A stretch of DNA of 64,000 nt from Ostreococcus lucimarinus (lineage: Eukaryota): NCBI GenBank assembly GCA_000092065.1, contig CP000598.1. One strand, 5' to 3'. The notes under the pieces are model-generated. The model did not search any database, was not told the origin of the DNA, and saw nothing but the letters and a program-made list of their open reading frames with translations. Both the position numbers and the translations under genes were made by a program. This document shows, piece after piece, positions 15,881-45,116 of the stretch. How positions within the stretch are numbered: position 1 is the stretch's first letter; the number at the start of each line of letters is the position of its first letter.

Positions 15881-15996
15881 ACGCTTTGGTTGTGGCGTAT
15901 AACCAACGATGGAGGAAACTTCAACAACACGTCAACTCTGCTCGCGCGTTGTTTTCTCAAAGCGCTTTGACGAAGACTATCTCAATGCGAAACTTG

Positions 15997-16914
15997 TCAG
16001 CAGTTGACAAAAAATAGTTTACAAAGATTTCGCGCGCGCTCGATGACTTCCATTTCGTCGTGCGTAGCGGCGAACTCCAATTCAGGCCACGTCACTAGAG
16101 GCGCGCGCTTTCCCGCGTGCGCGTTATGATTCTTTCGTCGTTCGATGGCGCCTTTGAAATCCAAGTCTTCACACCCGATGAAATGAGAACGCGCGCATAA
16201 CATTTCGAACAGTTTTGAATCGTTCGCGTCCTCAATTTTGAACCAACATTCCGCCGCTTCGTATCCAAGATTTGTGTATGTCGTCCACCACTCTAAACAT
16301 TGCACGTCGTGTCGCAAAGAGTTGAAAACGCTTATGTTGACCTCAAAATCGCGACGAATGTCCTTACCAGCCATTTCAGAGTTGAAATTTGTATCAAATT
16401 GCCACTTCGTTCCTCTGCAGCTGCGTATCACTTGGAGCGGATGTCGAACGATGAGGAAAGTATTCGTGAATACTTCGATTGATCTAATGGGAAATTGTGG
16501 TGAACTCGCCAGCCAGTTTGAGCTTCCGTTCACTCCGAATGTCTCGTGACCTATGTCTACGCCAACATCGCGAAATACTTGAGATACAAAGCCGGTTCCT
16601 GAATAGCCGGCTCCGGTTATGAGAGCTGCGGACGCGATTGCGGATTTGTCGCCCACCCGTACCGGTTTTGAACGACGTCGGAACGACGTCTCGCTGAGAG
16701 CATCTTCTGAGAGACATTGGTCTAGGCATGCGGCACAAACCGTTTCTGATGCAGTAACAAAGAACGAATCGTTCAAATTAACGTACCCCGTTAGCAATAA
16801 GGCGAGAATAGTCGACAGAAATCCACCGACCCTGGTAAAGCGCTCTCTGACTTTGACGAGCGAATACTCGTCACGAGTGACTCGAACTTCACACGCCAGC
16901 GGCGATTCGATCAT
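15997..16914 (-). CDS. type II membrane sulfotransferase-like protein
   Basis: An N-terminal TM anchor is followed by 'AALITGAGYSGTGF', a 5'-PSB-like P-loop (cf. the PKSGTT of carbohydrate sulfotransferases). 'IVRHPLQVIRS' is a 3'-PB-like RDP..vvS motif. Confidence 0.4.
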   Translation of the reverse strand: MIESPLACEVRVTRDEYSLVKVRERFTRVGGFLSTILALLLTGYVNLNDSFFVTASETVCAACLDQCLSEDALSETSFRRRSKPVRVGDKSAIASAALITGAGYSGTGFVSQVFRDVGVDIGHETFGVNGSSNWLASSPQFPIRSIEVFTNTFLIVRHPLQVIRSCRGTKWQFDTNFNSEMAGKDIRRDFEVNISVFNSLRHDVQCLEWWTTYTNLGYEAAECWFKIEDANDSKLFEMLCARSHFIGCEDLDFKGAIERRKNHNAHAGKRAPLVTWPELEFAATHDEMEVIERARNLCKLFFVNC

Positions 16915-18839: not shown

Positions 18840-20162
18840 CTAACGCTCTCCTGGTAGTATCGTTGCGCGTTGATCTATCGCTTGCCCTGTTGGATCCCAG
18901 GAAGGGTATCTCGTCATATTCGATAAGCGCAACGCCAAGGGCGTGTAAAATTGCTCGGCGTTCTCACCGGCTTTGACGAGCTCGTCGACCCTTCTCATGC
19001 GCGCGCCATACGCGCGTACTGGATCGTTCAAACAAAACAATCGCAATTCTTGCATCGTTTGTTCACAAGTCTTATTTGTACCGCTCTTAATGTTTCCTAT
19101 GAAGTCATCGAATCCACCGTATTCCGTCGCCGTCATCATTTTTAGGATATACTGAGGCGGGAAACAATAATTCGTCGCGTGGAATCCTCGACCGAGAACG
19201 TGTTCCATGCGCCCTCGAGGAAGGAGCATTTGGTCGAGGCGATTCGCTACGGTCACACCGGGATCACCGAGCGTCCACGGCATGTTACGCGCCGGAAAGT
19301 CGGATCGAAATGCGAAATTTAGGTTTCCGTACGGAAACCAAATGCCGAAATTACCCGGCAACGCCGTTTCGCAGCGCGCTGCTTTCCAAACGTCTTCCCT
19401 CGCCGGTATCTCGTCCACGTGACCAAAAATAACGAGCGTTTTCTCGTCGTAGCGTTTGGCGAGTTCCCGCGCTATGGCGCTCTCTTTCTCTGCTTCGAAT
19501 TGGAAATTGACCCCGTTCGGCGCCGCGGCGCCGGCTTGCGCGTGTTTGAAAATTTCCACCTTGTCGCGAATCGATTCAAACCTCGCCGTCTGTAATAATG
19601 ATTCAAGCGCGTCAAAAGTGGCTTCGCCTTTGTGCGTGACGTTCGACGTCACGGCGATAAACTTATCGACGACAGGGTGTAATTCGTACAGACGAATCTC
19701 CAACGTATCGACTTCGCCGCCGCCGAAGAGGAAAACATCCACAATATTCCTAGGTTCGTCTAAAGTTTTGCCAGCGTCGCACTCGAATTGAACGCTTGAT
19801 GCGGGTTGTAATGCTATGGAGGAATCGTCATAATCTGTGGGACTCAGAGCCGACGGAAACTGCGCGCGCGTGAGCAGTTCGATCACCCGACGGTGATCGC
19901 TCGATATGCGAACCAACTCTTCACACAGATCACTCGATGGCGCTAACGGTTCATTGAACGCACGAGGCGTGTTCTCATCTGCCGTTTCGCTCACGCTCGC
20001 GTCGATCGATTCACTCTGGTCACCTACTGTGCCGTTCACCGTGACTCCTGTGATGCGAACCAACTCTCGTGGAAAGTCGAAATCGACGTAGAGGTGCACG
20101 TACGCGTAAGTCAGCGTGACGACGACGAAAGCGACGATCTGAAACGCGCGCAGCTGTCTCAT
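18840..20162 (-). CDS. glycosyltransferase family 17-like (GnT-III-like), type II membrane protein
   Basis: 'DVFLFGGGEVDTLEIRLYELHPVVDKFIAVTSNVTHKGE' matches the GT17 core (ELDLLEIRL.EL...VD.FVIVES..TFTG). It has an N-terminal TM. Confidence 0.55.
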   Translation of the reverse strand: MRQLRAFQIVAFVVVTLTYAYVHLYVDFDFPRELVRITGVTVNGTVGDQSESIDASVSETADENTPRAFNEPLAPSSDLCEELVRISSDHRRVIELLTRAQFPSALSPTDYDDSSIALQPASSVQFECDAGKTLDEPRNIVDVFLFGGGEVDTLEIRLYELHPVVDKFIAVTSNVTHKGEATFDALESLLQTARFESIRDKVEIFKHAQAGAAAPNGVNFQFEAEKESAIARELAKRYDEKTLVIFGHVDEIPAREDVWKAARCETALPGNFGIWFPYGNLNFAFRSDFPARNMPWTLGDPGVTVANRLDQMLLPRGRMEHVLGRGFHATNYCFPPQYILKMMTATEYGGFDDFIGNIKSGTNKTCEQTMQELRLFCLNDPVRAYGARMRRVDELVKAGENAEQFYTPLALRLSNMTRYPSWDPTGQAIDQRATILPGER

Positions 20163-20378: not shown

Positions 20379-21401
20379 ATGGCTGAACTATCCACGGGGA
20401 AAGTCGAAACCGGCTTGGTGAGCCCAACGATGGGCGTTCGAACCGCCTCGCTGGCGTCGCGAAAGCATCAAGCGCTGGCGCTTTTCATCTTGACGATCCA
20501 AAACACCGCCTTGGTGCTCGTGACGAAGTTTTCGTATAGAAAATCTGCGACGCCTTACGTCGTGTCCACAGTCATCGCGAGCGCCGAGCTCGTCAAACTC
20601 GCTTTGAGCTATATTTTGTTGGTCGCGTCCGACGGACAAAGCGCCGCCCGGGACGCGCTCCGCGAGGTGCCGTCCAACGCGACGCGGCTCGCGGTCCCAT
20701 CCGTGCTGTACGTAATACAAAACAACCTCCTTTTCGAGGGCGTGCGGTTGCTGAGCCCGACCGCATACATGGTGTGTTCGCAGAGCAAAATTCTCACGAG
20801 CACGATTTGTAGCGTCTTGCTCCTAGGAACGCGAATCACGCGTAAACAATATGTAGCGTTGTTGGTCCTCGCGTGTGGGATGATCATGGTACAGAACGAA
20901 GAAGGACGTGGACGCGATTTGCCGTCGGATAGAGCGCAGGTGAGACAAACTGTGCGAGGTATGGTCGTCGTGCTCACCGCCGCGTTTACGTCTGGCTTCG
21001 CGGGGGCGTATTTAGAGAAAATGTACAAAGAAGTGGGCGCTCAAAAGCGATCGGTATGGTTCCGCAACGCACAACTGGCGTGCTTTTCACTTCCAGTGGC
21101 GTTGATCGGATCAGTGTGGCGCGATGGAGAGCGCTTGCGCGCGAACGAAAGCGTGTTTCAAGGATACGACGGCGTCGTGTTGCTCGTCATCGCGCTACAA
21201 GCCGCCGGTGGTTTAGTCGTCGCGGCGGTGTTGCGATACGCGGGAAACGTGCTCAAGTGCTTCGCCGTGTCTATTTCTATATGTAATTGCGCCCTCGCGA
21301 CGACGGTGTTTGCCAACGACGGACACAACCTGAGCGTTACGGCATCTCTCGGCATAGCGCTCGTCATCGGGTCGACGTTTCTTTATTCAAACGTAGTGTA
21401 G
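20379..21401 (+). CDS. Golgi nucleotide-sugar transporter (SLC35A / UDP-Gal/CMP-Sia transporter family)
   Basis: A 340-aa polytopic protein. 'SVLYVIQNNLLFEGVRLLSPTAYMVCSQSKILTSTICSVLLLG' matches the Nuc_sug_transp signature (P..LY.lQNNL.yvAl..L.aatyQV.yQlKIlTTA). Confidence 0.85.
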   Translation: MAELSTGKVETGLVSPTMGVRTASLASRKHQALALFILTIQNTALVLVTKFSYRKSATPYVVSTVIASAELVKLALSYILLVASDGQSAARDALREVPSNATRLAVPSVLYVIQNNLLFEGVRLLSPTAYMVCSQSKILTSTICSVLLLGTRITRKQYVALLVLACGMIMVQNEEGRGRDLPSDRAQVRQTVRGMVVVLTAAFTSGFAGAYLEKMYKEVGAQKRSVWFRNAQLACFSLPVALIGSVWRDGERLRANESVFQGYDGVVLLVIALQAAGGLVVAAVLRYAGNVLKCFAVSISICNCALATTVFANDGHNLSVTASLGIALVIGSTFLYSNVV

Positions 21402-22709: not shown

Positions 22710-23795
22710 GTGCATGCCACTAAATCTCTATCTTCGAAGCCGCGCGCGCGCATGGGATCGCGTAAGCAACGCGTCGCCGTTGTCCTGGCGCTCGTTGCCC
22801 TCGTCGCTGGAGGTGGACTAGTGAAACAGCTGGACACGCGCGGGTGTTCGAAAGATACTTCAGCCGCGACGGTAAGTGGCGCTTCGTCATCAGCTCAACC
22901 ACGCTCGACGGGAGCTGAATCGCGAGACAATAAACGCGAGACGCCACCTATCGATGCTGTCTCCGCGACGAAGATTGATGATCGAGCTGAAAAGTACGCT
23001 ATAATCGTCCCTATGCACGCCGTCACGCAGCTCGAAGTCATGAAAACCACGTGGAAAATATTTCCACCTTGCGCTGCCGATGCGCGAGCCGCACAAATAA
23101 TTGATTTGATTTTCTTATCCGACGTAGACCTCTCGTCGCTCGACGTCACAGGGGGTCACTGCTTTCAGCGAGTGTATCGCCTGCGACCGTTCATCCCGAG
23201 CTGCTACAACGTATACGCACAAGCACCACCGTATTGCTTCTTCACGATGATACTTCATCTCGACTTAGACCGTACGTACGACGCCATACTTCAAGTAGAA
23301 GCTGATTCCGTGCCCGTGAAATCCAATTGGTTGGACGCCGCCGTGGAAAACATATTAAAGCCGACATCGGGCGAAGTGTGGATACACGCAGCGAAAAATG
23401 AACGCGGTGGAAACAATTTCAACGGTAATGGCGCGTACAACTTGCAAAATGACGAATTTCGTCAATTCATAATAGGTTACAGGGAATGGTTTTACACAAA
23501 GGCGGTCAACTCTGGCGACACGGCGTTCGATACAAACATGATTACGTTTGCAAAAGAAGTGGGGTCTTTCGGAAATTTCTCCAACACGCATCTGCGTGCG
23601 TCGAAAAGTCTTCGGAACTGCGATCTCATGTCCCTGACAGCGTGTCGGTCGGCGGTGGATGCGTCCACGTGGGGCGGCGCGACGCCTGAAGCTCTTTTCG
23701 TTCACAGTCACGATCTGAAAGATCCTTCGCGAGTGAGGAGTCAAATCTTGGTGGAAATGCTTGGTAGAGACGATGGTATACGGCAATTCAAATGA
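22710..23795 (+). CDS. hypothetical type II membrane protein
   Basis: 'RVAVVLALVALVAGGGLV' is a signal anchor, followed by a Ser-rich stem and a globular domain of unknown family. Confidence 0.35.
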   Translation: MHATKSLSSKPRARMGSRKQRVAVVLALVALVAGGGLVKQLDTRGCSKDTSAATVSGASSSAQPRSTGAESRDNKRETPPIDAVSATKIDDRAEKYAIIVPMHAVTQLEVMKTTWKIFPPCAADARAAQIIDLIFLSDVDLSSLDVTGGHCFQRVYRLRPFIPSCYNVYAQAPPYCFFTMILHLDLDRTYDAILQVEADSVPVKSNWLDAAVENILKPTSGEVWIHAAKNERGGNNFNGNGAYNLQNDEFRQFIIGYREWFYTKAVNSGDTAFDTNMITFAKEVGSFGNFSNTHLRASKSLRNCDLMSLTACRSAVDASTWGGATPEALFVHSHDLKDPSRVRSQILVEMLGRDDGIRQFK

Positions 23796-24687: not shown

Positions 24688-25674
24688 GTGAAGCCGTGCG
24701 CAAAAGTTCGGCGGTCGTCGATAGGTCTGGCAACGTCGGTCATGCGTTGGTTGAGGGGACGTGGTGTCAAGGCGATAATGTGCGTCGCCCTTGTCGCAGG
24801 TTTCGCCAAGGTACCAGATCTGCACGTCAATAAGTATACTATGACACAGACACTGCAAGGCGACGGCTTTGGTTCACAGTTTCAAAATATCACATCTACC
24901 GCGGCTGCTCTGCACGTCAATAAGTGTACTATGACACAGACACTGCAAGGCGACGGCTTTGGTTCACAGTTTCAAAATATCATATCTACCGCGGTTTTCG
25001 CTCAAACCTTGAACAAACACTTTTGCGTGACCCCTATCGAAAGCATGGAGCACAACTACGACAATCGCTCAACGTTCCTTCGAGAAGTCAGCGAACTGAT
25101 TAATTTACCAGTACTTTCAAGTCAAGAGGACATGGACATTGAAAAGTGCGAGGTTAAAAAAGGCTGGCTGGATAGCTACATAGTTCAGGAAGCAAATCAG
25201 TTGGACGTTCGTACAAAATTGGGTAACATTCGAAAGCAGTTCTTGGGTAACAAGCGCTCGTTGTCGGAACTTCGTAAACACGCTGCCGTGCACATCAGGA
25301 GGCAGAATTCTTTTGATAATCGAAACACTGTTTCTCATGATGAAGTCGTGTGCTTTGTGATGAGGGAAATTCTCACTCAAAACAGCAATATTCAGTTTCA
25401 TGTATTTAGCCAGGGCGATATTTCGGAGTTTTGGCGCTACCAGAACGATTCAAGAATCGTCCTACGTCTCGACGAACCCATCAACGTGACGTTCACTGAA
25501 ATGGTTGTCGCCAAAATTTTGGTCACAGCCACGTCGTCATTTAGCTATGCAGCAGCACTTCTCTCAGAGGGTGAGATATGGGCCCCAAGACCGTTCTGGC
25601 ACAACTACCCTTCCTTCTGGAAGACATATCAGCTTTCTCGTACATTGTCTAACTTTGAGACATGCCTACCATGA
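24688..25674 (+). CDS. GT11-like alpha-1,2-fucosyltransferase-like glycosyltransferase carrying an internal in-frame tandem duplication
   Basis: 'LQGDGFGSQFQNIISTAVFAQ' matches GT11 motif I (GGLGNQMFQYAFA), and the C-terminal 'ATSSFSYAAALLS' matches the (S/T)TFS..A motif. There is an N-terminal TM. Confidence 0.5.
   Translation: MKPCAKVRRSSIGLATSVMRWLRGRGVKAIMCVALVAGFAKVPDLHVNKYTMTQTLQGDGFGSQFQNITSTAAALHVNKCTMTQTLQGDGFGSQFQNIISTAVFAQTLNKHFCVTPIESMEHNYDNRSTFLREVSELINLPVLSSQEDMDIEKCEVKKGWLDSYIVQEANQLDVRTKLGNIRKQFLGNKRSLSELRKHAAVHIRRQNSFDNRNTVSHDEVVCFVMREILTQNSNIQFHVFSQGDISEFWRYQNDSRIVLRLDEPINVTFTEMVVAKILVTATSSFSYAAALLSEGEIWAPRPFWHNYPSFWKTYQLSRTLSNFETCLP
24821..25000. repeat. 2 x 90-bp tandem duplication inside the GT11-like CDS (in frame, duplicating motif I)
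   Basis: 'tgcacgtcaataagt[a/g]tactatgacacagacactgcaaggcgacggctttggttcacagtttcaaaatatca[c/t]atctaccgcgg' occurs twice, at 24821 and 24911. Confidence 0.8.
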
Positions 25675-26986: not shown

Positions 26987-27958
26987 CTACAACCCCTGGC
27001 AGAGCACTTGAGCAACATGCCGCATGTGGCGAAATCGCATGTTCAAGAATAAATCGTCGGCGCAATCATGATTCAAACCTCTTGGGAGGTATTCAAAGCC
27101 CAACGAGGTGATAAAGTCGCGAAGTTCATGCTCGCCATGCTGATCAGCGTAGCCGGTAACCACTAGCTCCGGTTGAATCCAGACAACTCGTTTCGATAGC
27201 CAATGCCGAGCCCCTTTGATAATCTCTAAGTCATGGCCCTGTGCGTCAATCTTCAACATGTCGATATATTGGACGCGGCCACCTTGAACACCTAGAGACT
27301 CTGACTTTGGAACTGACACGGACCAAGGCAGAAGGGTAAAGAAATCATGAAGATTCCAAACAGGGACCTGAATTTCATTCTGCACGTCAAACTTGACCGG
27401 TTTGTGTAAGCTTGATGTCCCTGGATCACCAGCGGTCGCGTAAAATGTCTGCAAGTGTAGAGGAGAAGAGCCCATCGCCACACAAGATAAAAAGTAGCGT
27501 TTGCCAACTAAGTCCAACGGCACACAGAGGTCTCCTGTGGAGCAAGCACAACCCTTCAGTATGTTCTTGCAACTTGTCGGATTAGGCTCAAACGCAAAAA
27601 CTGTCAGCTGATCCGGATCGGAAGTGCTGCTGAACCATAAGGCGGAGTTTGGAGCGTTGTAAGACTCACCAATAGATATTTTCACACGCCGCGTATGCCT
27701 CGGCAGTGCAATTTTTCCACGCCGCAGGTGCACTGGAAGTAAGGCACGCGTGGCGTGACGAGTGCGCGAGATATCTTTGATACGTTCGGCCCCTACGAGT
27801 GGATCACTTTTTGGTTCTTCACAGCTACTCCCAAGTGAGTCGCTGTACGATTCAGTCACAGGAAGTCCGCGTGCTGACGCAAACGCAAGGAGTACGAGCG
27901 AACCCAGCGAACCGAGCAAACAGCCCGCAACCAACCTAAATTTCATACTGAATTTCAT
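26987..27958 (-). CDS. FkbM-family methyltransferase, type II membrane topology
   Basis: 'VFAFEPNP' and 'IDMLKIDAQGHDLEIIKGA' are FkbM motifs. The probable start is the Met at 27958 ('MKFSMKFRLVAGCLLGSLGSLVLLAFA', a signal anchor). The track ORF extends to 28195, but its first 79 aa look non-coding. Confidence 0.5.
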   Translation of the reverse strand: MKFSMKFRLVAGCLLGSLGSLVLLAFASARGLPVTESYSDSLGSSCEEPKSDPLVGAERIKDISRTRHATRALLPVHLRRGKIALPRHTRRVKISIGESYNAPNSALWFSSTSDPDQLTVFAFEPNPTSCKNILKGCACSTGDLCVPLDLVGKRYFLSCVAMGSSPLHLQTFYATAGDPGTSSLHKPVKFDVQNEIQVPVWNLHDFFTLLPWSVSVPKSESLGVQGGRVQYIDMLKIDAQGHDLEIIKGARHWLSKRVVWIQPELVVTGYADQHGEHELRDFITSLGFEYLPRGLNHDCADDLFLNMRFRHMRHVAQVLCQGL

Positions 27959-28694
27959 TCTGACAGGGACTCGCACGTTCTCGTGTCGCTTAAAGCCCGT
28001 ATTTTGCTCCATCTCTTCGCGGTCTAAATACTGTATAAAGTGGGTGTGTAGTACGCTCTTTTCCGTTCTTCGGCCTGGGTGTTCAGTATGCTGTTTCCGG
28101 TCTTCAGTTTCTTCATCTCGACGGCTTCGGGGCGACCACTTTGGCCGGCGACGAGTTTGCCCTGTACCATAGGACATCGTGGCCGCACACAGCATTTCGA
28201 GGCCTATATATTATAATATCTCTTGTTTTTGTCAGAGGCCTATTTCTCAGAAACATCGTGTCCTTATGCGAAAATGAGGTGGATTAAGAGATGCGAAATT
28301 CGAAAATAGAATCGGCGATTTATTCCGATAAGGGCCGTTTTTTCCCACATCGGAATGAATCGGGCCTTTGTATTCCGAAAAGATACTTGTCAAAATAGCG
28401 CGACTCGTCACGTGACGAGTTAATTTTAGGGGGTCCTATTCCGACAACGCTATTCCGGCTATCTCTTTTGAAAAACTAGCGACGCGAAATGAAGACGCGC
28501 AGTCGCCCCACTAGTGCGCGTCACTTGTTGAACTCGTTCTTCACCGAACGGGGTTTTAAAGACGTACATGTGTCCTCAGGGAACCGCATGCGGATTGTCG
28601 TCGATCTCCTTTGACCTCGGACGCTGAGGCCTCGGACCTTAAAGTCCCCGCTTCCGACGTAAAAAGTTCTGTCAGTGCGAGTTTTAGCCACGCT

Positions 28695-30980
28695 ATGAAC
28701 TGGAGACTGAGTATGTCGGAGTCGAAGTCGTTGTTGATTCTTCTCGTTGCATATGCATTTTGCAGCTCGACTCTCTTGATTCTCAATAAAGTTGCGTTGC
28801 AGACCATAAACTCGGGTACATTTTTGCTCCTACTACAGTGCGTGTTCACTTGTATGGCTCTTGGGACTCTCGACCATTTTGGATTTACTTCGGCTATTTC
28901 GCCTCTGGAGGCAGCCGAGCGCGAGCGATTTACTGTGGTGGTTGCCCTGTTCGTGACAACTCTATTTGCCAACATGAAATGTCTACAACTCGCAAACGTC
29001 GATACCGTTATCTGTATCCGCATGACGTGTCCTTTGTTAGTGAGTTTGCTCGATTATCTCTTTCTTGGAAGGGAGCTGCCCACTCGCACTTCAACCCTAG
29101 CATTGGTTGCAACTTGTGTGAGCTTTGCCTCATTTTTACTCGTTGAACAGAACTCTTCATGGATCACAATATTTTGGCTATCATTTTGGTACTGTGCTAT
29201 GGTATTTGAGACCGTATTCGTCAAGTTTGTTGTCAGTGACTCGTCGCTTTCAACAGCGGCACAGTCCTTCTATCAAAATTTACTTGCGATCCCGGTGTTG
29301 ACAGTGATATGGTTTTCCACAGAGATCCCAACTAGTGTTTTTGAACAAATTTCTTTGTCTACTTCGGAATTCTCCTTGGTTCTGTCCACTTGTATTCTCG
29401 GGTTAGGGATGAGCTACTTGTCGTTTGCTGTGCGTGAACGGGTATCGGCGACGAGCTTTTCAATGCTTGGTAATACGTGCAAGTTGATAACAATTCTAAC
29501 GAATTATTTACTATGGGAAAAACATGCTACAGGTGTTGGAACTTTTGCAGTCCTTTTCTGTCTTGCATCCAGTACCTTTTATCGCCAGGCGCCGTTGCGA
29601 CATCCTATTAATCATAAGGCGCAGTCATGGTTTCCCGCCCCTTGTACCATCAAGGCTACTGAAGAAGTCAATATGAGGATCATTGCAGCTGGGTTACTCG
29701 GTATCCTGGCGCTTGGCTTGCACTTTACTTCATATTTTCGTAGTTCTGTGAACTGGAACCTTGAAGAACAAACAGGTGTTTCTGGCGTTTCAGGAAAATT
29801 ATTTACTGGTGCACAAGTGCGGCAGTATTTTCCTTCGCATGACGATCGTCCTTCCAAGAAAAATCGTTCGACCTCTTCTCCCTTCTTTTCTGATCATATG
29901 TCTTGCGAAAATTGGGCCGTTTGTACCACCATCTTCGTCGAGTCAGACGCAGTGCGTGACGTTTGTAAAATACTACCGTCGTACTGCCTACTTGTCGTCG
30001 CAGATAAGAAAGGTCCACTAGAATACTTCATCGACGGGAACTGCACGTTCGCATACTTATCTGTAGAGCAACAAGAAGACATGTTAACAGACTCAGACTT
30101 CATCACAGAAACGCCGTGGAATCACTTTGGGCGGAAAAATCTAGGGTACTTGTTTGCAATAGCGAATGGTGCGAAGATGATATGGGATTTTGATGATGAC
30201 AATCAAATAATCAGTTCAAAATTTTTTCTCGATCAGGCAGGAGAGCACCAACTAGTTACAGTCGAACCAATTACTTCGATGCTGAATCCTTACCCCTTAC
30301 TTGGTGCCGAAAAGTTTTCCTGGCCTCGTGGTTTTCCACTCGACGGTATAAAAAACGAGGCATCACAACCAAGCGTTGACGATCTACGAGTTTCTGTCGT
30401 CGACTTCGAACGTGTCGGAGTACTGCAATCACTGGCGAATAATGATCCAGATGTTGATGCTATTTACAGGCTTCAGAGAGACCTGCCTTTCAGCTTCAAA
30501 GGCTGGTCGAGTCCTGCAAGTGTTTTCGTTTTGCCAGGCGCTTCTTTTGCTCCCTGGAATGCTCAAGCCACCCTTTTCAGGATGCGGGATGCACTCTGGG
30601 TTTCGTATTTACCTATCTCTATTCATGGTAGGGTATCTGATATATGGAGATCATACATAGCGCAGCGACTTTTGCGGAACGTGTGTATTCACATCGCCTT
30701 CGCTGTGGAGCCACTTGTTGTGCAACATCGAAATCAGCATTCCTACCTTGCCGATTTCGATGCGGAGCAAGATTTGTATTACAAATCAGGTAAACTGATC
30801 GAGCTTCTTGGAGAGTGGACCGCAAAATCTTCCTTTCCTCAAGAGCAGATTGTGGAGCTCTTCAGGATTCTGTATGAACATGATTATGTTGGAATCAAAG
30901 ATGTTCGAATGATCGAACTCTGGATTTCAGAGCTCAACCGAGCGGGATACATCTTTCCAAAGAGCTGCAGTGTCCGCTAG
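28695..30980 (+). CDS. fusion protein: an N-terminal TPT/NST-type nucleotide-sugar transporter domain joined to a C-terminal STELLO/DUF288-like glycosyltransferase domain
   Basis: The first roughly 330 aa contain about 10 TM helices (drug/metabolite-transporter-like). After an extra TM ('IIAAGLLGILALGL') comes 'NHFGRKNLGYLFAIANGAKMIWDFDDDNQI', which matches the STELLO-like (DUF288) W..KN.GYL.AI..GA..I.D.DDDN motif. The 2.3-kb ORF is uninterrupted within AT-rich sequence. Confidence 0.55.
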   Translation: MNWRLSMSESKSLLILLVAYAFCSSTLLILNKVALQTINSGTFLLLLQCVFTCMALGTLDHFGFTSAISPLEAAERERFTVVVALFVTTLFANMKCLQLANVDTVICIRMTCPLLVSLLDYLFLGRELPTRTSTLALVATCVSFASFLLVEQNSSWITIFWLSFWYCAMVFETVFVKFVVSDSSLSTAAQSFYQNLLAIPVLTVIWFSTEIPTSVFEQISLSTSEFSLVLSTCILGLGMSYLSFAVRERVSATSFSMLGNTCKLITILTNYLLWEKHATGVGTFAVLFCLASSTFYRQAPLRHPINHKAQSWFPAPCTIKATEEVNMRIIAAGLLGILALGLHFTSYFRSSVNWNLEEQTGVSGVSGKLFTGAQVRQYFPSHDDRPSKKNRSTSSPFFSDHMSCENWAVCTTIFVESDAVRDVCKILPSYCLLVVADKKGPLEYFIDGNCTFAYLSVEQQEDMLTDSDFITETPWNHFGRKNLGYLFAIANGAKMIWDFDDDNQIISSKFFLDQAGEHQLVTVEPITSMLNPYPLLGAEKFSWPRGFPLDGIKNEASQPSVDDLRVSVVDFERVGVLQSLANNDPDVDAIYRLQRDLPFSFKGWSSPASVFVLPGASFAPWNAQATLFRMRDALWVSYLPISIHGRVSDIWRSYIAQRLLRNVCIHIAFAVEPLVVQHRNQHSYLADFDAEQDLYYKSGKLIELLGEWTAKSSFPQEQIVELFRILYEHDYVGIKDVRMIELWISELNRAGYIFPKSCSVR

Positions 30981-31357: not shown

Positions 31358-32602
31358 TCACTCTGGAAACAAGGTACGCGTTTTTCTTCTCCAGTGCTTC
31401 AAGATATCGGCAATTGTGTTTGTGATGTTTGGGTCAGGAATCCACCCCGTCAGCTCTCGTATTTTCCTATTATCTGACAAAAGTATCTTCTCATCGTAAA
31501 GCCGCTCACGTGCACCATCAAACAGCGTCGTGATGTCTGGTCTTGTTGACAGTGAAATCGCTGTGTCTAGGATGTCCTTCATTGAAAGTGCGATGCCACT
31601 ACCGATGTTGTACGACTCTCCAGGCTCTCCAAGGTCTACAAGTTTCGTTACCACTCGTGCAGAATCGCGGAGGTCAGTTATGTCCCTTTTTGTGGTAATG
31701 CGCCCATGTCTCACCACTGGGCTTTGCAATCCGAGCTCGATCATTGCTATCTGCCGACAAAACTCTTGAGGTGCGAGACTCTCAGTCCCACCCGCTGAAA
31801 CTTGGATAAAAAATCGAGCGGTGACGACGTGCATGCCGTGGCTGTGCACATATTGCTGAGCAAGTAGGTCTGCTGCAACCTTGCTTACTCCATAAGGAGA
31901 CACGGGCGCCAATGGTGCTTCTTCAGGTATGGCCCCTTCCCACGTATCAGCAGTTTTTCCATATTCTGTGCTTGAACCAGCCAGCAGAAAGCGCGTTTTG
32001 TTGGAGAGTCCTGCAAATCGCACTGCTTCTAGCATGTTGAAGGTGCCTTTGATGTTGGTATCTAAAGTCAGCTCAGCGGAGTCATATGAAACCCCGTTGA
32101 TTGCTTGTGCAGCAAAATGGAAAATAACTGTTGGGCAGATTTCTGCGACCACCTGTTTGACACGAGTTCCGTCCAGAATGTCTCCACGAACGAGCTGTAT
32201 GTTGTTCAATTCGCCTGCCAAATTTGACAGGTCAGATCGGTATCGCACAAGACCGTGAACCTCATACTTTCCTTCCTGTATCAACTGTTTCACAACGTAG
32301 CTGCCTATCATTCCAGACACACCTGTCACGAGAGCTCTTGGTCTTGCAGATAGAGCACTCAAGCAAGGCGTGTAATCTTTACTCTTTGCATTAAGATTTG
32401 TAGCAAAAGAGGATTCCTCACGGTACATATGAGTTTTTGAAGGTTGAACATTGTATCGTGAAGTAACCGGGCTTGAAAGTCCTGATTTGAATTGCACAGC
32501 CTGATATGACGGATGTAACACAACAGCTGCTAAAACAAACGATGAAACAGCCAATATTCGTGCAGTCTTTCCCAGCGTGTGCTTGAAGCGACTGTCGCGC
32601 AT
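31358..32602 (-). CDS. NAD(P)-dependent nucleotide-sugar dehydratase/reductase of the extended SDR family (GDP-mannose 4,6-dehydratase/RMD-like), with an N-terminal membrane anchor
   Basis: 'LVTGVSGMIGSYVV' is a Rossmann GxxGxxG. 'YEVHGLVRYRS' resembles the GMD motif 'YEVHGIVRRSS'. 'GSSTEYG' and the 'YGVSK' YxxxK catalytic pair are present. Confidence 0.65.
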   Translation of the reverse strand: MRDSRFKHTLGKTARILAVSSFVLAAVVLHPSYQAVQFKSGLSSPVTSRYNVQPSKTHMYREESSFATNLNAKSKDYTPCLSALSARPRALVTGVSGMIGSYVVKQLIQEGKYEVHGLVRYRSDLSNLAGELNNIQLVRGDILDGTRVKQVVAEICPTVIFHFAAQAINGVSYDSAELTLDTNIKGTFNMLEAVRFAGLSNKTRFLLAGSSTEYGKTADTWEGAIPEEAPLAPVSPYGVSKVAADLLAQQYVHSHGMHVVTARFFIQVSAGGTESLAPQEFCRQIAMIELGLQSPVVRHGRITTKRDITDLRDSARVVTKLVDLGEPGESYNIGSGIALSMKDILDTAISLSTRPDITTLFDGARERLYDEKILLSDNRKIRELTGWIPDPNITNTIADILKHWRRKTRTLFPE

Positions 32603-33083
32603 AGATAGCTGTCCTTAGCAAGTGATGACTATGTTATACTTCGAAGGTGTGCGGGACAAAATTCGCGACTGCCCTTGAGCGGCACGGAATGAGTTCAACA
32701 AGTGAGGCGCGCTGGCAGGGCGACGGCGCGCGTATACGTGTCGCGTCTCTTCATTTGCCATCATTTTTTATGTACAGTACAAGGGGGCTAGTAGTACTTT
32801 AGTAAAGTAATTGTACTAATTGTAGTCATGATTGGTCGTTGTGCAGCATTGAGTCATGATTCGTCGTTTTACCCCTCCCAAACGTTGGCGGTATTTAGCC
32901 AGATCCGAATGTACACAGTCAGACGGTCGCTCTTGGGTCATGACTTGTCAAATGGGCTCAAAAACTCGCCCCGGCCGTGATCACCACAATGCCCTGACGC
33001 TCACTTTTTCGCTCAAAACGCTATCCTATGCCAAACGATGCCCGCACAACGGAGGACGCAGTCAAACGACTACAAACACTAGC

Positions 33084-34277
33084 ATGGCGTCCGTAGCGTC
33101 CGTTATCGCCGCCAAGCGCGCTGGCTTCATCGGTATGGGTCGTCTGGGATTGTGTACCGCCCTCAAGTTTGAGCAAGCGGGTTGGGATGTCTGTGGGTCT
33201 GACGTCTTTCCGTCGTACGTTGAAAGTATCAACGACAAGAGTCTTCGAAGCAAAGAGCCCGGAGTCGAAGAGGCTTTGCGAAAGAGCACGCGTTTGCGAG
33301 CGACTCTGAATCTCCTTGATGTCCTAGAGCATGCCGATATCGTTTTCATTCTCGTCGCGACTCCAACCAGCGCGGGCGAAGAGGCCTACGACACGACAAC
33401 TCTGAGCAGGGTCTTGAGTGATATCGCTAAATTAAGGCCGACAAACAAACACATCGTGATTTGCTGCACAGTGTTGCCTGGTTACATCTCGAACATCGGT
33501 AGTTACCTTATCGAAAGTTGCACTGGATGTAGTTTGAGTTACAATCCAGAGTTCATCGCCCAGGGTGAGATCATGAAGGGCCTCAGTGAACCCGACGTGG
33601 TGCTCATAGGGGAAGGAAGCGAAGAAGCCGGTGATATTCTACAGTTTTTATACGAGACCGCGACGTCCAATGAGCCTCGGATCTGTCGCATGTCTCCGCA
33701 AAGCGCTGAGATAATGAAACTAAGCGTAAACTGCTTTGTTACCACGAAGATCAGCTTCGCCAATATGATTGGTGACATTGCTGACGCGACGCCTGGTGCA
33801 GACAAATTCGACATCCTTAGAGCCGTTGGTCAGGATACACGTGTCGGCCACCGGTGCATCCTTCCAGGTTACGGCTTCGGAGGTCCTTGCTTTCCACGTG
33901 ATAATAGAGCACTCGGAATGTACGCACGCAAGGTTGGAATCACTCCTTCAATTTGCGACGCGACGGATGAATACAACCGACTTCACGCGGACGCCATGGT
34001 AAAGGCTCTTTTGGAACAAAAACTAGAGCATTATACCATCAGTGATGTTGCTTACAAGCCACAGTGTCCGGTGGATATTATTGAAGAGTCGCAACCACTC
34101 GAAGTGGCCAAGAGACTTGTTCAAGCAGGCAAGCGAGTCGTTATACGCGATCGACCCGCCATCATCGAGCTCGTACGCCGCGCTTACGGGCGTATGTTTA
34201 CCTACGGAGCATACAAAGTACCTAACGAAGAACCAAATACTTCTGCTGGCAACCCGTTATCAAGCTACGCGAGGTAA
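33084..34277 (+). CDS. UDP-glucose 6-dehydrogenase-family nucleotide-sugar dehydrogenase
   Basis: 'GFIGMGRLGL' is the NAD-binding GxGxxG. 'GYGFGGPCFPRDNRALG' is the catalytic Cys motif (canonical GFGGSCFPKD). The three-domain layout matches the UDPG_MGDP_dh family. The track ORF starts at 32856, but the first in-frame Met before the Rossmann fold is at 33084. Confidence 0.8.
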   Translation: MASVASVIAAKRAGFIGMGRLGLCTALKFEQAGWDVCGSDVFPSYVESINDKSLRSKEPGVEEALRKSTRLRATLNLLDVLEHADIVFILVATPTSAGEEAYDTTTLSRVLSDIAKLRPTNKHIVICCTVLPGYISNIGSYLIESCTGCSLSYNPEFIAQGEIMKGLSEPDVVLIGEGSEEAGDILQFLYETATSNEPRICRMSPQSAEIMKLSVNCFVTTKISFANMIGDIADATPGADKFDILRAVGQDTRVGHRCILPGYGFGGPCFPRDNRALGMYARKVGITPSICDATDEYNRLHADAMVKALLEQKLEHYTISDVAYKPQCPVDIIEESQPLEVAKRLVQAGKRVVIRDRPAIIELVRRAYGRMFTYGAYKVPNEEPNTSAGNPLSSYAR

Positions 34278-34976: not shown

Positions 34977-36575
34977 GTGAATACGATTCACGTTCGAACG
35001 CTCTTGGAGTTGCGCTTCGACATGCTACTGAAAGTAGCTTGCGATTCCGGTACTATGGCTCGCCGAACGGTCATTCTGTTTGCGGTTGTGGCCGTGTTGC
35101 TTTGGAGACTGTTCTTGTTCGATATTGGTGACAGCAGATTTAAAAGTATCACACCACATCCATCACCGGAGCAAAGACGACAACAAAATCACCGAGCAAG
35201 ATTTTTAGAGCTCACACATAACGAAACCTACAAAACCGCAAATGTCGAAGAGAGGAACGATGAACATTTCAAGATGGAACGATATGAAGAATCACCTGCA
35301 AGATTACAAGCGTCAGCTAATTTGGATACACAGAGCACCCGCGTCTTGGTTTTAAGTTGGCATGGTGGTACCGCGAAAGACACAGCGATGCAACTTCATA
35401 ACGCTGGAGTTCGTCGCGAAAATATCGTGTGTGGAGGCATTATTTGGTACGAGAAAGTCCTCGATTCTGCTCCTTGCGTAAGAGATCATGCATTATCTGA
35501 GGCTTTGAATCGATTGACACAGCGTGTAAGAGGTTTTCCCATGGCTATCGATCCAGCAGACGAGAAATGGTTGGATGATTTCGCAGCTGAGGCTAGCGAG
35601 ATGCTATCTACGTTCCATGTGCTCTGGGCGGACTTTCCTACCGCCCTTTGTCTTCTATTAAACAAGATTGCCCCACATAAATTGATAGTACGCACAACGC
35701 ATCGTTTTGATCACCAGGTGGCTCATTCGAAGATAAATCACACGTCATTTGTACGTAAAAGCCTCATGCGCGTTCTACGCGAGGCGCCAATACTTCTTGC
35801 TGGGAGCGAGTACGATCGGGCATACATGAAGTTCTACACATGTCGTGAACCTGAACGTCTATTCATAACATGGCCAACACAGTATTTGGAGAGTTTGGGC
35901 GCATCGCGTACACTTACGAACGAGTCATGCTTCATCTTGTGGGGGGGGTCGAACAACGAAGGTAGTTCAAGCATATCGATTACATTTGATAGAATACGAG
36001 TCCTCGGGCGCACTATGGAGTCACAAGTTCCCATGAAAAGTCGCCCAACGAGTTTTGCTCACGCTTCGGAATTTGCAACAGAGCAAGCCGTAGTATATTT
36101 CCCATACAGTATGCCGAGTTCCGCATTTCATGAACTTTACGCGAGTGGTGTCCCCCTTTTCGTGCCATCGTTGACTTTCATGCTCGATGAGTTTTCAAAA
36201 AACCGTGGCTATCCTCACAAAGTAGCTGGTAATGTCCCTTGTGCTTCACCATCTTTTTACGAAAACGCTGAGGCAGTGGAGTTCTGCTGTCTTGACGATA
36301 CTGGGGTATGTCATGATCCAAATTCATGCGATCCTGAAGCGCTGAAACAATGGGTATCATTAGGTGACCTTTACACCACCCCGCATGTGACGTATTTCGA
36401 CAGTGCCGAGCATGCTGTGGAACTCATGAGCAACTGGATGAAGCATCCAGACCAACGGGATCGAACGATCGAGGACATGGAGTCACACAACGTTGCTAAC
36501 CTTCGATGGAATGCTCGTGTCGTTCAAGCCGCAATTCGTCATGTCAAACAAAGCAGCGCGCTTGAACTGGATTGA
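34977..36575 (+). CDS. putative type II membrane glycosyltransferase (GT-B-like C-terminus)
   Basis: 'RRTVILFAVVAVLLWRLFLF' is a signal anchor. The C-terminal 'VVYFPYSMPSSAFHELYASGVPLFVPS' resembles the GT1/GT4 donor-binding E...G.P motif. The last roughly 47 codons are duplicated at 40078..40213. Confidence 0.4.
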   Translation: MNTIHVRTLLELRFDMLLKVACDSGTMARRTVILFAVVAVLLWRLFLFDIGDSRFKSITPHPSPEQRRQQNHRARFLELTHNETYKTANVEERNDEHFKMERYEESPARLQASANLDTQSTRVLVLSWHGGTAKDTAMQLHNAGVRRENIVCGGIIWYEKVLDSAPCVRDHALSEALNRLTQRVRGFPMAIDPADEKWLDDFAAEASEMLSTFHVLWADFPTALCLLLNKIAPHKLIVRTTHRFDHQVAHSKINHTSFVRKSLMRVLREAPILLAGSEYDRAYMKFYTCREPERLFITWPTQYLESLGASRTLTNESCFILWGGSNNEGSSSISITFDRIRVLGRTMESQVPMKSRPTSFAHASEFATEQAVVYFPYSMPSSAFHELYASGVPLFVPSLTFMLDEFSKNRGYPHKVAGNVPCASPSFYENAEAVEFCCLDDTGVCHDPNSCDPEALKQWVSLGDLYTTPHVTYFDSAEHAVELMSNWMKHPDQRDRTIEDMESHNVANLRWNARVVQAAIRHVKQSSALELD

Positions 36576-37652: not shown

Positions 37653-38298
37653 CGTTTTACGATGATCGCCCTTGTAACATTCGGCTCGAAGGAATACTTT
37701 GAAGAAGTGACGCGGCGTAAATATTTCGTCGAGAACCACACTTTGGCATTCGCAAGTCTCGACGCGTACGAAAACAATCTGTTCTCGAGGTTGGTTGCGG
37801 TATAGGGACCGCGACACAAAGTTTTACTGAAGCTGGCGCGGTTTACACAGGCATCGACGTTTCCTTGCGAAGTGTAGAACTCGCTGAGAAGCGACTCAAA
37901 CTGTTCAAACTCAATGGTGAGGTGCGCGTTGCAGATATACAGACCGATGAATTCATGCACGACCATTTTGATCCTCTTTTTAGTTTCGGAGTTCTGCATC
38001 ACATCGCCGATGTACAACCCGCCGTGAAGGATATTTCATGACTCTCAAACCGGGAGGCGAGTGCAAGCTGATGATGTACGCAAATAATTCTTGGAAAAAA
38101 ACTTGGAAAAAGACTTTCGTCGACTCGGGATTGGACCAATTTGAACCACAATCTGGAGTTCCAATCACTCACACTTACAAAGCCAGTGTCGTGCAATCAT
38201 CAAGCTCGTTTGTGAAATCAAACTCGAGCGATCGTCGTCGACCGTCCGCGCTCGCCGAAGGGTGCGGGCGCAACGCAGGTGAGAATTCGCCCCAGTAG
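37653..38298 (+). pseudogene. class I SAM-dependent methyltransferase with at least two frameshifts
   Basis: Frame 1 reads 'MIALVTFGSKEYFEEVTRRKYFVENHTLAFASLDAYENNLFSRLVAV*'. Frame 3 reads 'VLEVGCGIGTATQSFTEAGAVYTGIDVS...DPLFSFGVLHHIADVQPAVKDIS*' (motifs I, post-I and II). A third frame gives 'LKPGGECKLMMYAN' (motif III). The frame changes are near 37790 and near 38037. Confidence 0.55.
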
Positions 38299-39364
38299 GC
38301 GCTCAAGTCGTTATTCGAGTACCAACGCACGGTTTCCGCGAGACCGACGTCCCAGGACTTTTCTTGTCGCCATCCGAGCGCTAAAAGCTTTGAGCAATCG
38401 ATGAAATATCTTCGGTCGTTGAAGGCTCGATCGCTCACGTGCTCGATGGTCGTTTCCGGGTCGCGATCGAGGAGCTTACAGACATCCCGAGCGACGGACA
38501 AGATCGTCCGCTCTTCGCGCGAGCCGATGTTATAAATCTGCGCCGTCGTCCCGCGGTGGAGAATGACATCGAACGCCGAAGACGCATCGTCAACGTGCAT
38601 GTACGAACGCGTCGCGTCGCCGTCGCCGTGTATCGAAATCTTTTCCCCGCGTTTCGCGAGGATTGAAAACTTTGGAATCGCCTTCTCTGGATACTGATTC
38701 GGCCCATACACGTTGTTTCCGCGAGTGATGATGTACGGTAGTCCGTACGAGCGTCCATACGCCATGACGAGCATCTCCGCGCCCGCCTTGGTCGCGGCGT
38801 ACGGGTTGGTGGGCGTCAGGAGCGACGCGTGCTCGGTGTTTGAATCCATGAGATTTTCCCCGTATACCTCATCCGTGGACACGTGCAGGAATCGTCGAAT
38901 TTCGGTCTTCTGCGCTCGCACGCACGCCTCGAGTAACGCGTGCGTGCCCTCGATGTTATTCTTCGTGAACTCGTACGAGTTCCCGAAAGAGTTGTCCACG
39001 TGACTCTGCGCGGCGAAGTGCATGACGGTGTCGATGCGCTCGCTTTGCAAGACGTAACTCAATAAATCGAACGAACGCACATCGCCCTTGACGAACCGCA
39101 CGTTCGCGCATTCTTTCGCGCGCTCGAGATTTTTCAAGCTCGAGCAATAGTCGAGCTTGTCCAGGATGACAATCTGTCGAGCGCGACGAGTCGTTCGCGG
39201 TCAGTCGTTCGCGCGAGAGATGGGTGCAAAGTCCGTGCGTTGTTCGACGCACGCGCACGGGGTCGAAATCGTGCGCGCACCGTGTACTCGGGATGCCTCG
39301 ACGCGAGGCGCTCGGCGACGTGCGAGCCGATGAAGCCGGCGCCACCGGTGAGAAGGATGCGCAT
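38175..39364 (-). CDS. UDP-/dTDP-glucose 4,6-dehydratase (RmlB/RHM-type), two exons: 39281..39364 and 38175..39173
   Basis: Exon 1 is 'MRILLTGGAGFIGSHVAERLASRHPEYT' (GxxGxxG). Exon 2 is 'IVILDKLDYCSSLKNL...HFAAQSHVDNSF...YAATKAGAEMLVMAY...NVYGPNQYPEKAIPKF', the hallmark of 4,6-dehydratases. Splicing restores the conserved '(Y/H)PEY-x-IVxLDKLDY' junction. Confidence 0.8.
39174..39280 (-). other. spliceosomal intron (phase 0, GT..AG, 107 nt) of the 4,6-dehydratase gene
   Basis: On the minus strand the intron begins GTGCGCGCAC and ends ...CTCGACAG. Removing it joins 'HPEYT' in frame to 'IVILDKLDYCSS'. Confidence 0.7.
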
Positions 39365-44069: not shown

Positions 44070-45116
44070 GTGGTGAGTATGGCGAAACCGAACCCCGGGC
44101 GGTTGAAAAGTTCGTTCCCGGCTGTTGCGTCACTTGTTAAGAGGAGTACTTTGGTGACTGTTTGCGCCTTCTGCGCCGCCTGTATCGCGTGCTGGTACAT
44201 TCGTACAGCTTTGAGTGAATCTCCTGTACGTGACAATAACGCAGCTCGTTCCAGCAGATTTAACTGCGGCGTCCGGCAGGCTCAGCTTCTATCGGTCGAT
44301 GGAAATCCGTGGCTTTTTCATTCGGGCGATGCGATCACTTCTACTGTTAAGGCGAAGGGCACTTTCGAGCCAGCGATAAGCAATTTGATTCGGCGTCAAC
44401 TCAGTATTGCAGATGGAATGATGGTCGATATAGGTGCAAATGTCGGTGTTATGACGAGTGTTGCGCTTTCTCTGGGCCGCGAAGTGGTCGCCGTGGAGGC
44501 ACTCCCGGATAACGCGAATCTGTTACGCTGTAGCGCAGATCACAACGGCTGGACCACGCTGTTGAAACTACATAATACGCCACTTGCTGATCCTGCGTCA
44601 AAATCCGAACGGTTTTGTGTGTGCCGGCCTATTGGAAACCCGAGCGACGGTATTCTAGTACCGTTTACTCAGTTTGCAGATCATCCTTTCTGTGGAGGTG
44701 GCCAAAGAAAAACAAAAGGAGCGACGGGGCACTGTGCCGAAGAAATGAAGTCCATAACCCTTGATGAAATACTAGGCAGTGGTTCGAATCCTATCGCCTT
44801 CATGAAAATGGATATTGAAGGAAATGAGTGTCGCGTCTTGAAAGGCGCGGCGGCGACCTTACATGGTGGCAACCCATGTACAATTTTAACTGAGTATAAT
44901 CCTGGTCTTCAGCAATATACCAATTGTACACTCATCGACATGATCGATCACATGAAGCTATTAGGTTACTTACCGCACACTTTTCAGCGACAAGGATGCT
45001 CTTTGAAGGAGCTTACATCCGTTCAGGCAGGAAAAATGAGCGCGCCAGGATCGGTGCATAATATTTGCTGGAAACCTCTTTTAGTTCCCAAACATTGCGT
45101 GAAAAAAGCGAGCTGA
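44070..45116 (+). CDS. FkbM-family methyltransferase, type II membrane topology
   Basis: 'MMVDIGANVGVMT' is the DxGAN.G motif, with 'VVAVEALP' and 'FMKMDIEGNECRVLKGA'. The signal anchor is 'LVTVCAFCAACIACWYI'. Confidence 0.7.
   Translation: MVSMAKPNPGRLKSSFPAVASLVKRSTLVTVCAFCAACIACWYIRTALSESPVRDNNAARSSRFNCGVRQAQLLSVDGNPWLFHSGDAITSTVKAKGTFEPAISNLIRRQLSIADGMMVDIGANVGVMTSVALSLGREVVAVEALPDNANLLRCSADHNGWTTLLKLHNTPLADPASKSERFCVCRPIGNPSDGILVPFTQFADHPFCGGGQRKTKGATGHCAEEMKSITLDEILGSGSNPIAFMKMDIEGNECRVLKGAAATLHGGNPCTILTEYNPGLQQYTNCTLIDMIDHMKLLGYLPHTFQRQGCSLKELTSVQAGKMSAPGSVHNICWKPLLVPKHCVKKAS

Follow-up and report, generated by a model that had tools for sequence, protein, structure and literature searches.

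The window analysed here, a stretch of 64,000 nucleotides from chromosome 18 of Ostreococcus lucimarinus (contig CP000598.1), covers a glycan-gene island of that chromosome and carries, at 28695..30980 on the plus strand, a single open reading frame (ORF) in which a ten-helix nucleotide-sugar transporter continues through an additional membrane helix into a domain related to the STELLO proteins and to the glycosyltransferase (GT) family GT75. Chromosome 18 is the 150-kb small outlier chromosome (SOC) of this species (Table 1, PMC5082852), and the small outlier chromosome has been implicated in prasinovirus resistance in O. tauri, via changes in glycans (PMC5082852). The parts of the fusion gene are as follows:

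28695..30980 (+), the whole fusion ORF: 761 amino acids (aa) plus stop, or 755 aa with the alternative start at 28713; the ORF is identical in independent contigs
28713..29591 (+), nucleotide-sugar transporter domain: residues ~7-299, 10 membrane helices, ending in a conserved YRQAPLR
29592..29657 (+), linker: residues 300-321, predicted to be cytosolic, poorly conserved, containing lysine and arginine (K/R), its length varying by in-frame indels
29658..29747 (+), eleventh membrane helix (TM11): residues 322-351, the counterpart of the signal anchor in type-II STELLO-like proteins that stand alone
29748..29909 (+), predicted luminal stem: residues 352-405, with a conserved GVSGxLFxGxxxR
29910..30629 (+), GT75-related GT-A and core region: residues 406-645, with DDD500-502, WPRGFP containing R545, DPDVD584-588 and NAQA622-625
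30630..30962 (+), region of Pfam STELLO PF03385: residues 646-756, with R646, D649, Q677, R679, H682 and a C-terminal helical bundle

In the ORF listing of the window the frame runs from 28611 to 30980 (+), 789 aa if counted from a TTG. Its first ATG, at 28695, gives one open frame of 761 codons with exactly the limits proposed earlier from the letters alone (the sequence-only reading), and a second ATG at 28713, preferred by metagenome gene callers, gives a protein of 755 aa (P0001) that is 100% identical to the window protein. At a stop frequency of 0.049 per codon, as expected from the local base composition, the probability of 789 open codons is ~5e-18, and the remaining five frames contain 23-42 stops across the same stretch. 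A fortuitous read-through is thus as unlikely as the sequence-only reading had held, though its description of the region as AT-rich is not correct in absolute terms, the GC content being ~45% in the fusion ORF and 46-48% in the surrounding windows. At least nine independent metagenome or SRA contigs (L001-L006, L010-L012) carry the uninterrupted frame with 98-100% identity, which excludes a sequencing or assembly artefact. Two contigs from other samples with the identical gene (L003, L004) both begin at 28691 and carry extra 3' intergenic sequence just beyond ~31070, and two from different runs (L005, L006) both end at 28447 and 31062; these differences around the fusion gene suggest strain-level variation. 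A viral origin was rejected on a pattern scan of IMG/VR, which gave no relative.

Within the transporter half, Kyte-Doolittle hydropathy and the AlphaFold model agree on ten membrane helices in residues 7-293, the DMT fold of the SLC35/DMT (TPT-NST) group. The EamA profile PF00892 matches the N-terminal half when this is scanned alone (35.1 bits against a cut-off of 28.2; 1.8e-8), and the scan of the whole protein lists nothing at E<=0.01; PF03151 (TPT) has no match to the fusion protein and matches stand-alone homologues at 38-42% identity. Vrg4 is the best solved match by sequence (phmmer 0.007) and by family profile (7e-13), with a Foldseek TM-score of 0.77-0.80 to the N-terminal half. The 10-TM nucleotide-sugar transporter claimed in the sequence-only reading is supported by the helix count and the Vrg4 profile match. 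In the alignment, Y28, N221 and K289 of Vrg4 have their equivalents in Y20, N195 and K263, and judging from these sequence features the transporter half may work like a purine-nucleotide-sugar carrier. The closest annotated stand-alone homologues, uncharacterised proteins labelled 'sugar phosphate transporter domain', come from green algae and protists; the named relatives carry automatic labels only ('GDP-mannose transporter', 'solute carrier family 35', 'sugar phosphate transporter domain'), with no characterised protein among them.

The AlphaFold model, built on 38 homologues (mean predicted local distance difference test, pLDDT, 87; predicted TM-score, pTM, 0.72), lays the protein out as ten helices, a disordered stretch, a long helix at 322-351 and, after another disordered stretch, an alpha/beta domain at 406-749, with pLDDT <50 at residues 313-318 and 351-366. 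The extra membrane helix expected between the halves accordingly corresponds to TM11, which is present in every fused homologue examined; it is hydrophobic in 16/16 fusions checked, and the transporter side is richer in K/R in most of them. Directly after TM11 the window protein has the stem motif GVSGKLFTGAQVRQY, which likewise follows the N-terminal anchor in stand-alone metagenomic STELLO-like proteins and in those fused to short-chain dehydrogenases/reductases (SDRs); in the ORF on contig L041, for instance, a hydrophobic anchor is followed by SGTSGQLFDGDRIRIF. Nucleotide-sugar transporters are generally taken to have a cytosolic C-terminus. With a cytosolic transporter C-terminus and TM11, the topologies of the two halves are therefore compatible as they stand: ten helices, cytosolic linker, TM11, luminal enzyme. 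By its predicted layout the fusion is an entire STELLO-like protein of type II in which a transporter stands in for the cytosolic tail, the luminal placement of the enzyme being predicted from helix parity, the K/R bias and the N-terminally anchored stand-alone homologues.

The C-terminal half matches Pfam STELLO PF03385 at residues 646-756 with 72.2 bits against a cut-off of 27.8 (E 4.8e-20); the match covers profile positions 1-111 of 387 only, the protein ending five residues further on, and this holds for all homologues scanned. The same half is related to the bacterial pyranose/furanose mutase MtdL, a GT75 enzyme that acts on GDP-sugars (PMC9937993), with a phmmer value of 1.6e-10 and a family-profile value of 7e-30. 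The protein thus has the module order of STELLO proteins (TM11, next a GT75-like region at 406-645 that contains DDD500-502 and DPDVD584-588, and finally PF03385; STL1/2 were compared by their published description), and it has the GT-A, core and helix fold of GT75 with the DDD motif and the position of the nucleophilic or autoglycosylated Arg. The similarity of this domain to STELLO proteins, on which the sequence-only reading depended, is thereby confirmed, with two amendments. Its 'STELLO/DUF288-type' motif, KNLGYLFAIANGAKMIWDFDDDN, is encoded at 30135-30203 but sits in the GT75-related DxD region, outside the PF03385 match; and the name glycosyltransferase is right as far as STELLO/GT75 similarity goes, but transferase activity is only putative, the nearest family being that of sugar-nucleotide mutases, minus three essential residues. 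NCBIfam, a set of prokaryotic naming models, gave no match for the fusion. The mapped MtdL positions and their equivalents are:

MtdL D109-D111: D500-D502, kept
MtdL R159: R545 (in WPRGFP), kept
MtdL D195: D586 (in DPDVD), kept
MtdL Q229: Q624, kept
MtdL R257: R646, kept
MtdL D260: D649, kept
MtdL R289: R679, kept
MtdL H292: H682, kept
MtdL D87: F478, differs
MtdL S228: A623, differs
MtdL H287 (Mn ligand): Q677, differs

All of these, kept or differing, are invariant across nine aligned fusions; the domain looks catalytically competent, but it is no canonical GT75 mutase.

The fusion is not confined to one sequence. When the whole protein was used as the query, both halves were present in ten clusters formed at 90% identity (P0001, P0003-P0009, P0017, P0018), and nine of these have 32-58% identity with it. 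Six 50%-identity clusters (P0074-P0077, P0086, P0129) came in addition from an exhaustive comparison with 1.84 billion cluster representatives; with a local hidden Markov model for each half, both domains were found in 27 of 332 collected proteins. The search of other genomes that the sequence-only reading had proposed as a check thus yields at least 16 diverged clusters, in which the linker (72-118 residues) is variable in sequence but always in frame and never interrupted. Measured against an 80%-identical relative, the ratio of nonsynonymous to synonymous divergence (dN/dS) comes to 0.17 in the enzyme, 0.23 in the transporter part and 0.67 in the linker. Purifying selection acts on both halves (dN/dS ~0.2), and the frame is intact against P0003 although the synonymous sites are saturated (proportion of synonymous differences, pS, >0.75). 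This conservation of the fusion points to a single mRNA and a single protein. The contig of P0018 is the metagenome record JACLAA010004282.

One further protein, P0120 (L090 1-2268, +), has the reverse order: a STELLO-like domain, one extra membrane helix and a 10-helix transporter. If real, P0120 would represent an independent fusion event, and its order predicts the same luminal placement of the enzyme; L090 is a single contig, its ORF runs off the 5' end and its GC content falls from 71% to 52%, so that a chimeric assembly is possible. A neighbour-joining tree of the transporter half, of which the rooting is unreliable, shows three fused clades interleaved with stand-alone transporters. In a ~80%-identical relative, codons 12-241 lie upstream of codons 217-758 in the opposite orientation and share a short duplicated overlap with them, as seen in two independent assemblies:

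L009, 421-579 (-) and 793-2427 (+), inverted and remaining part
L013, 3-692 (-) and 906-2534 (+), inverted and remaining part

The protein called there, P0002 (568 aa), consists of a truncated transporter tail, TM11 and the enzyme; such a broken gene fits the known plasticity of the SOC.

Both families also occur with other partners. The transporter subfamily is joined to a GT37/xyloglucan-fucosyltransferase-like domain in P0039 (a weak Pfam match; a cluster of 31 members, on contigs of up to 400 kb) and to a 390-aa domain of unknown kind in P0031, and transporter plus STELLO is extended by a GT2/GT92-like module in P0008 and P0072 and by four different, unrelated C-terminal domains in P0074-P0077. 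STELLO-like domains are fused to SDRs of the GMD family in P0040, P0109/L041, P0111, P0157, P0161, P0249, P0257 and P0261; the ORF on L041 (473-4759) encodes 1428 aa in which a type-II anchor and a STELLO-like domain are combined with two SDRs. Besides P0040 and the L041 protein, at least seven more clusters unite STELLO-like domains with SDRs. Elsewhere STELLO-like domains are fused to FkbM (P0240), GT90, O-FucT, GT31-type and GT92 modules. The genes of the glycan island around the fusion are:

18840-20162 (-), GT17
20379-21401 (+), CMP-Sia/UDP-Gal-type transporter
26987..28195 (-), FkbM methyltransferase, divergent upstream neighbour of the fusion
31358..32602 (-), GMD/RmlB-family SDR, 4,6-dehydratase-like, with an N-terminal hydrophobic anchor, convergent neighbour of the fusion
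32856-34277 (+), nucleotide-sugar dehydrogenase (TIGR03026, 2e-65)
38175-39137 (-), 4,6-dehydratase-like SDR
41424-43796 (+), WecB-type UDP-GlcNAc 2-epimerase with an extension (TIGR00236, 8e-128)
44070-45116 (+), FkbM methyltransferase
47072-48313 (-), GT61
48623-49828 (+), GT90

The N-terminal hydrophobic segment of the convergent SDR, ILAVSSFVLAAVVL, suggests a type-II, luminal nucleotide-sugar dehydratase. This SDR shares 49% identity with its counterpart in P0040, which is there fused to a STELLO-like domain, and 55% with one of the SDRs in the L041 ORF; because the same type of SDR is STELLO-fused elsewhere, it is a probable pathway partner of the fusion. An FkbM gene also lies directly upstream of a 49%-identical orthologue of the fusion on contig L014. 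The window therefore carries, as separate genes, modules that are fused elsewhere, which argues for one shared pathway.

Some further features of the window should be noted. The conserved domain of the dehydrogenase at 32856-34277 starts from residue ~88, which leaves either an ~88-aa N-terminal extension or a true start codon downstream. The ORF at 41424-43796 (+) encodes 790 aa, of which residues 76-464 are the WecB-type non-hydrolysing UDP-GlcNAc 2-epimerase; its ~325-aa C-terminal extension gave no Pfam or PDB sequence match, and the ORF may be a further enzyme fusion in the island. Four plus-strand ORFs of 328-532 aa (22710-23795, 24688-25674, 34977-36575, 45719-47044) have no Pfam match at E<=0.001 and may be lineage-specific SOC genes. 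GC content is 57-65% at 4000-16000 of the window, against 46-53% for the glycan island (16-50 kb); the high GC content probably accounts for the long, overlapping ORFs on opposite strands at 4000-16000 (e.g., 13186-15880 and 13514-15211).

The explanation that we favour, and consider likely, is that the gene encodes one ~85-kDa polypeptide of the endoplasmic reticulum/Golgi membrane, in which an SLC35/DMT antiporter runs into a type-II STELLO-like enzyme that transfers the imported sugar. The transporter would exchange a cytosolic nucleotide sugar for a nucleoside monophosphate; the resemblance to Vrg4 and the presence of a GMD-like partner suggest a GDP-sugar as the cargo, which we regard as close to an even bet. 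The membrane-anchored neighbouring SDR may then modify the imported sugar in the lumen. The tethered domain, at the luminal mouth of the transporter, would bind the nucleotide sugar through DDD and the conserved Arg, Asp, Gln and His, and the sugar would be passed to a luminal acceptor. Tethering would fix a 1:1 ratio and co-localise transporter and enzyme, and the imported sugar may be channelled from one to the other, as the sequence-only reading proposed. Given the place of the gene in the glycan island of the SOC, and since the SOC of O. tauri is tied to prasinovirus resistance, the likely product would be a variant of a cell-surface glycan.

More tentatively, the findings can be read together, with the fusion as a 'Rosetta stone' that ties the STELLO-like family to a Vrg4-like, probably GDP-sugar transporter and to a luminal GMD-like dehydratase. 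On this wider reading, which is possible although we would not expect all of it to hold, the transporter-STELLO protein and the anchored SDR would form a self-contained Golgi module that imports a GDP-hexose, modifies it and attaches it to surface glycans, as an interchangeable cassette of a hypervariable chromosome that sets prasinovirus susceptibility, and the permuted order would stand for at least two independent fusions.

Several observations weigh against the favoured explanation of a fused transporter and transferase. The 90%-identity cluster of the protein holds the reference model XP_001422304.1/ABP00621.1 ('DMT family transporter: GDP-mannose, partial [Ostreococcus lucimarinus CCE9901]', 293 aa), which spans residues 7-299 only and lacks the C-terminal 460 residues. 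Poly(A) tails and transcript-like ends were sought in six contigs with the identical gene and none was found; as the contig ends fall on strain-variable junctions, these contigs carry no information on mRNA structure. The FYNN and GALNK (GXLNK) motifs of GDP-sugar transporters of the Vrg4/GONST type are kept only in part, as FYQN192-195 and GNTCK259-263, with Gln for N220, Cys for N288 and Phe (F255) for Y281, which makes a GDP-sugar substrate a guess. In the enzyme half, F478, A623 and Q677 replace three residues essential in MtdL, so that the full mutase set is absent, the chemistry cannot be read off GT75 and the protein is not filed as a GT75 mutase; nor does any member of the STELLO family have a demonstrated donor or acceptor (PMC4906169). 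Finally, the inversion in the ~80%-identical relative indicates that the fusion is dispensable, or breakable, in at least one lineage.

The main rival to the favoured explanation is that the C-terminal domain is no transferase but a GT75-type pyranose/furanose mutase or another donor-modifying enzyme, import being coupled to a luminal conversion (e.g., of GDP-6-deoxyhexose to the furanose) that serves a separate transferase. The conservation of the nucleophile R545, the proposed base D649, D586, R646 and DDD would suit such an enzyme, as would the repeated fusion of STELLO-like domains to dehydratase-like SDRs, that is, to enzymes that modify sugar nucleotides; the nearest structural relatives of the domain also favour a mutase, and MtdL uses GDP-sugars while the transporter half most resembles a GDP-sugar transporter. 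We nevertheless think it unlikely: D87, S228 and H287, needed for mutase activity in MtdL, are here invariably F, A and Q, and the function of Arabidopsis STELLO was not abolished by the mutation R271A, which removes the equivalent of the GT75 self-glycosylation Arg, but required the DxD aspartates (PMC4906169). The fusion of STELLO-like domains to bona fide transferases (GT2/GT92-like, GT90, GT31-type, O-FucT) is compatible with either role. A different objection concerns the location of the enzyme rather than its chemistry, in that TM11 might not span the membrane and the GT75-like domain might act in the cytosol before transport, like the plant RGP/UAM mutases. Classical GT75 enzymes (plant RGP/UAM, bacterial MtdL) are indeed soluble or cytosolic, and the charge bias around TM11 is modest in the window protein; we give this arrangement little credence, as a hydrophobic stretch of at least 19 residues is conserved in every fusion, K/R lie on the transporter side of TM11 in most of them, in the stand-alone homologues the same stem motif comes after a signal anchor at the N-terminus, the fusion of reverse order also inserts exactly one extra helix, and the catalytic domain of STELLO is luminal by protease protection and bimolecular fluorescence complementation (BiFC) (PMC4906169).

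It is also conceivable, but improbable, that the continuous ORF yields two proteins, through an internal promoter or start (e.g., Met327), premature termination or proteolysis in the linker. Met327 lies directly before TM11, the linker is under the weakest constraint (dN/dS 0.67) and is modelled with low confidence at 313-318 and 351-366, the reference gene model stops after the transporter, and one relative has a truncated version after an inversion. Met327 is not conserved, however, and the linker has neither stop nor frameshift in at least 16 diverged clusters despite its freedom to vary in sequence and length; two genes separated by a spacer would not hold one frame over saturated synonymous divergence (pS >0.75 against P0003), and the bridging helix is kept in the permuted-order fusion as well. 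Chance openness, a chimeric assembly or a decaying pseudogene, to which the rearrangement-prone SOC and the inversion inside the gene of one relative might have pointed, are effectively refuted by the improbability of the open frame (~5e-18), the identical ORF in at least nine independent contigs, dN/dS ~0.2 in both domains and mapped catalytic positions that are all intact and invariant.

Whether Golgi nucleotide-sugar transporters hand over their cargo directly to glycosyltransferases is debated, the evidence consisting of Förster resonance energy transfer (FRET) and BiFC between separate mammalian proteins (PMC9368800). A conserved, genome-encoded fusion with fixed 1:1 stoichiometry would be an experimentally simple test system for such coupling, and at least two independent fusions, if true, would imply direct selection for the physical coupling of transport and use. 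STELLO proteins matter for the assembly of plant cellulose synthase, with donor, acceptor and reaction type undefined (PMC4906169). If true, the 'Rosetta stone' reading gives partners to a STELLO-like family whose biochemistry has been undefined since 2016, and the recurrent partners (Vrg4-like transporter, GMD-like dehydratases, FkbM, other GTs) give testable hypotheses, for example that the STELLO donor is a GDP-linked, possibly 6-deoxy or methylated sugar. The annotation of XP_001422304.1 should grow from 293 to 755-761 aa, and the corrected gene model adds a candidate effector on a chromosome of the kind linked to virus resistance (PMC5082852).

Among known systems, Arabidopsis STELLO1/2 are type-II Golgi proteins in which a short tail in the cytosol and a single membrane helix precede a GT75-related region and then a DUF288 region (Zhang et al. 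2016, PMC4906169); their catalytic part is luminal (protease protection, BiFC), and the DxD aspartates are required (PMC4906169). From TM11 on, the fusion has the same order of modules (anchor, GT75-related DxD region, DUF288 region), its PF03385 score is well above threshold and its predicted luminal orientation agrees. It differs in that a whole 10-helix transporter takes the place of the short cytosolic tail and in that the long C-terminal part of PF03385 is absent (positions 1-111 of 387 only); a role in a cellulose synthase complex is not known for such a protein in Ostreococcus. With the GT75 mutases (MtdL, PDB 7XPR-7XPU; plant UAM/RGP, 8CID; PMC9937993) it shares the DDD motif, the nucleophilic Arg in PRGFP and the residues equivalent to D195, Q229, R257, D260, R289 and H292 of MtdL. 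In contrast to them, it has Phe for D87, Ala for S228 and Gln for the Mn ligand H287, and is membrane-anchored and predicted to be luminal, whereas the GT75 enzymes are soluble and cytosolic; sequence identity is only ~23%. Vrg4 (PDB 5OGE, 5OGK; PMC6789118), the best match among solved transporters, shares the 10-helix DMT fold, and its Y28, guanine-selective N221 (in FYNN) and K289 (in GALNK) are matched by Y20, N195 and K263; the fusion departs from it in FYQN, GNTCK and the Phe for Y281, and in adding an eleventh helix and a 410-residue predicted luminal enzyme. Unlike Vrg4 and the SLC35 carriers, its transporter falls in an uncharacterised algal and protist subfamily.

In the Golgi of mammals, SLC35A2-UGT8, SLC35A2/A3-MGATs and SLC35A2-B4GALT1/4 form non-covalent complexes (reviewed in PMC9368800). 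The proposed logic is alike, a transporter held in the membrane beside the enzyme that consumes its cargo; the mammalian partners are separate polypeptides (FRET, proximity ligation assay, BiFC), whereas the link in the fusion is covalent and genome-encoded. The closest precedent is ostta19g00600 of O. tauri, a GT92 protein with a transporter domain that is mentioned in one sentence by Yau et al. 2016 (PMC5082852) and has, in their S2 Table, a mean count of 4243 and a log2 fold change of 6.6 in virus-resistant O. tauri (PMC5082852). It, too, is a transporter-glycosyltransferase gene model on the SOC of a sister species, within a cluster of sugar genes, and it is transcribed, with a 2^6.6-fold induction in virus-resistant lines; transporter-GT fusions are thus transcribed on an Ostreococcus SOC. 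It differs in being annotated as GT92, not STELLO, and PMC5082852 neither discusses its architecture nor mentions a fusion of the STELLO type; a search with P0072 (transporter, STELLO and GT2-like) returned no named Ostreococcus protein. In the full-text literature we found no paper that analyses a natural fusion of a nucleotide-sugar transporter and a glycosyltransferase, the sentence of Yau et al. 2016 being the sole precedent; the architecture, of which the sequence-only reading knew no description, is thus not entirely new to the literature. The union of transporter and STELLO-like domain is a new form of a barely noted kind, the transporter-GT fusions on the outlier chromosomes of the Mamiellales, and is built from two known families.

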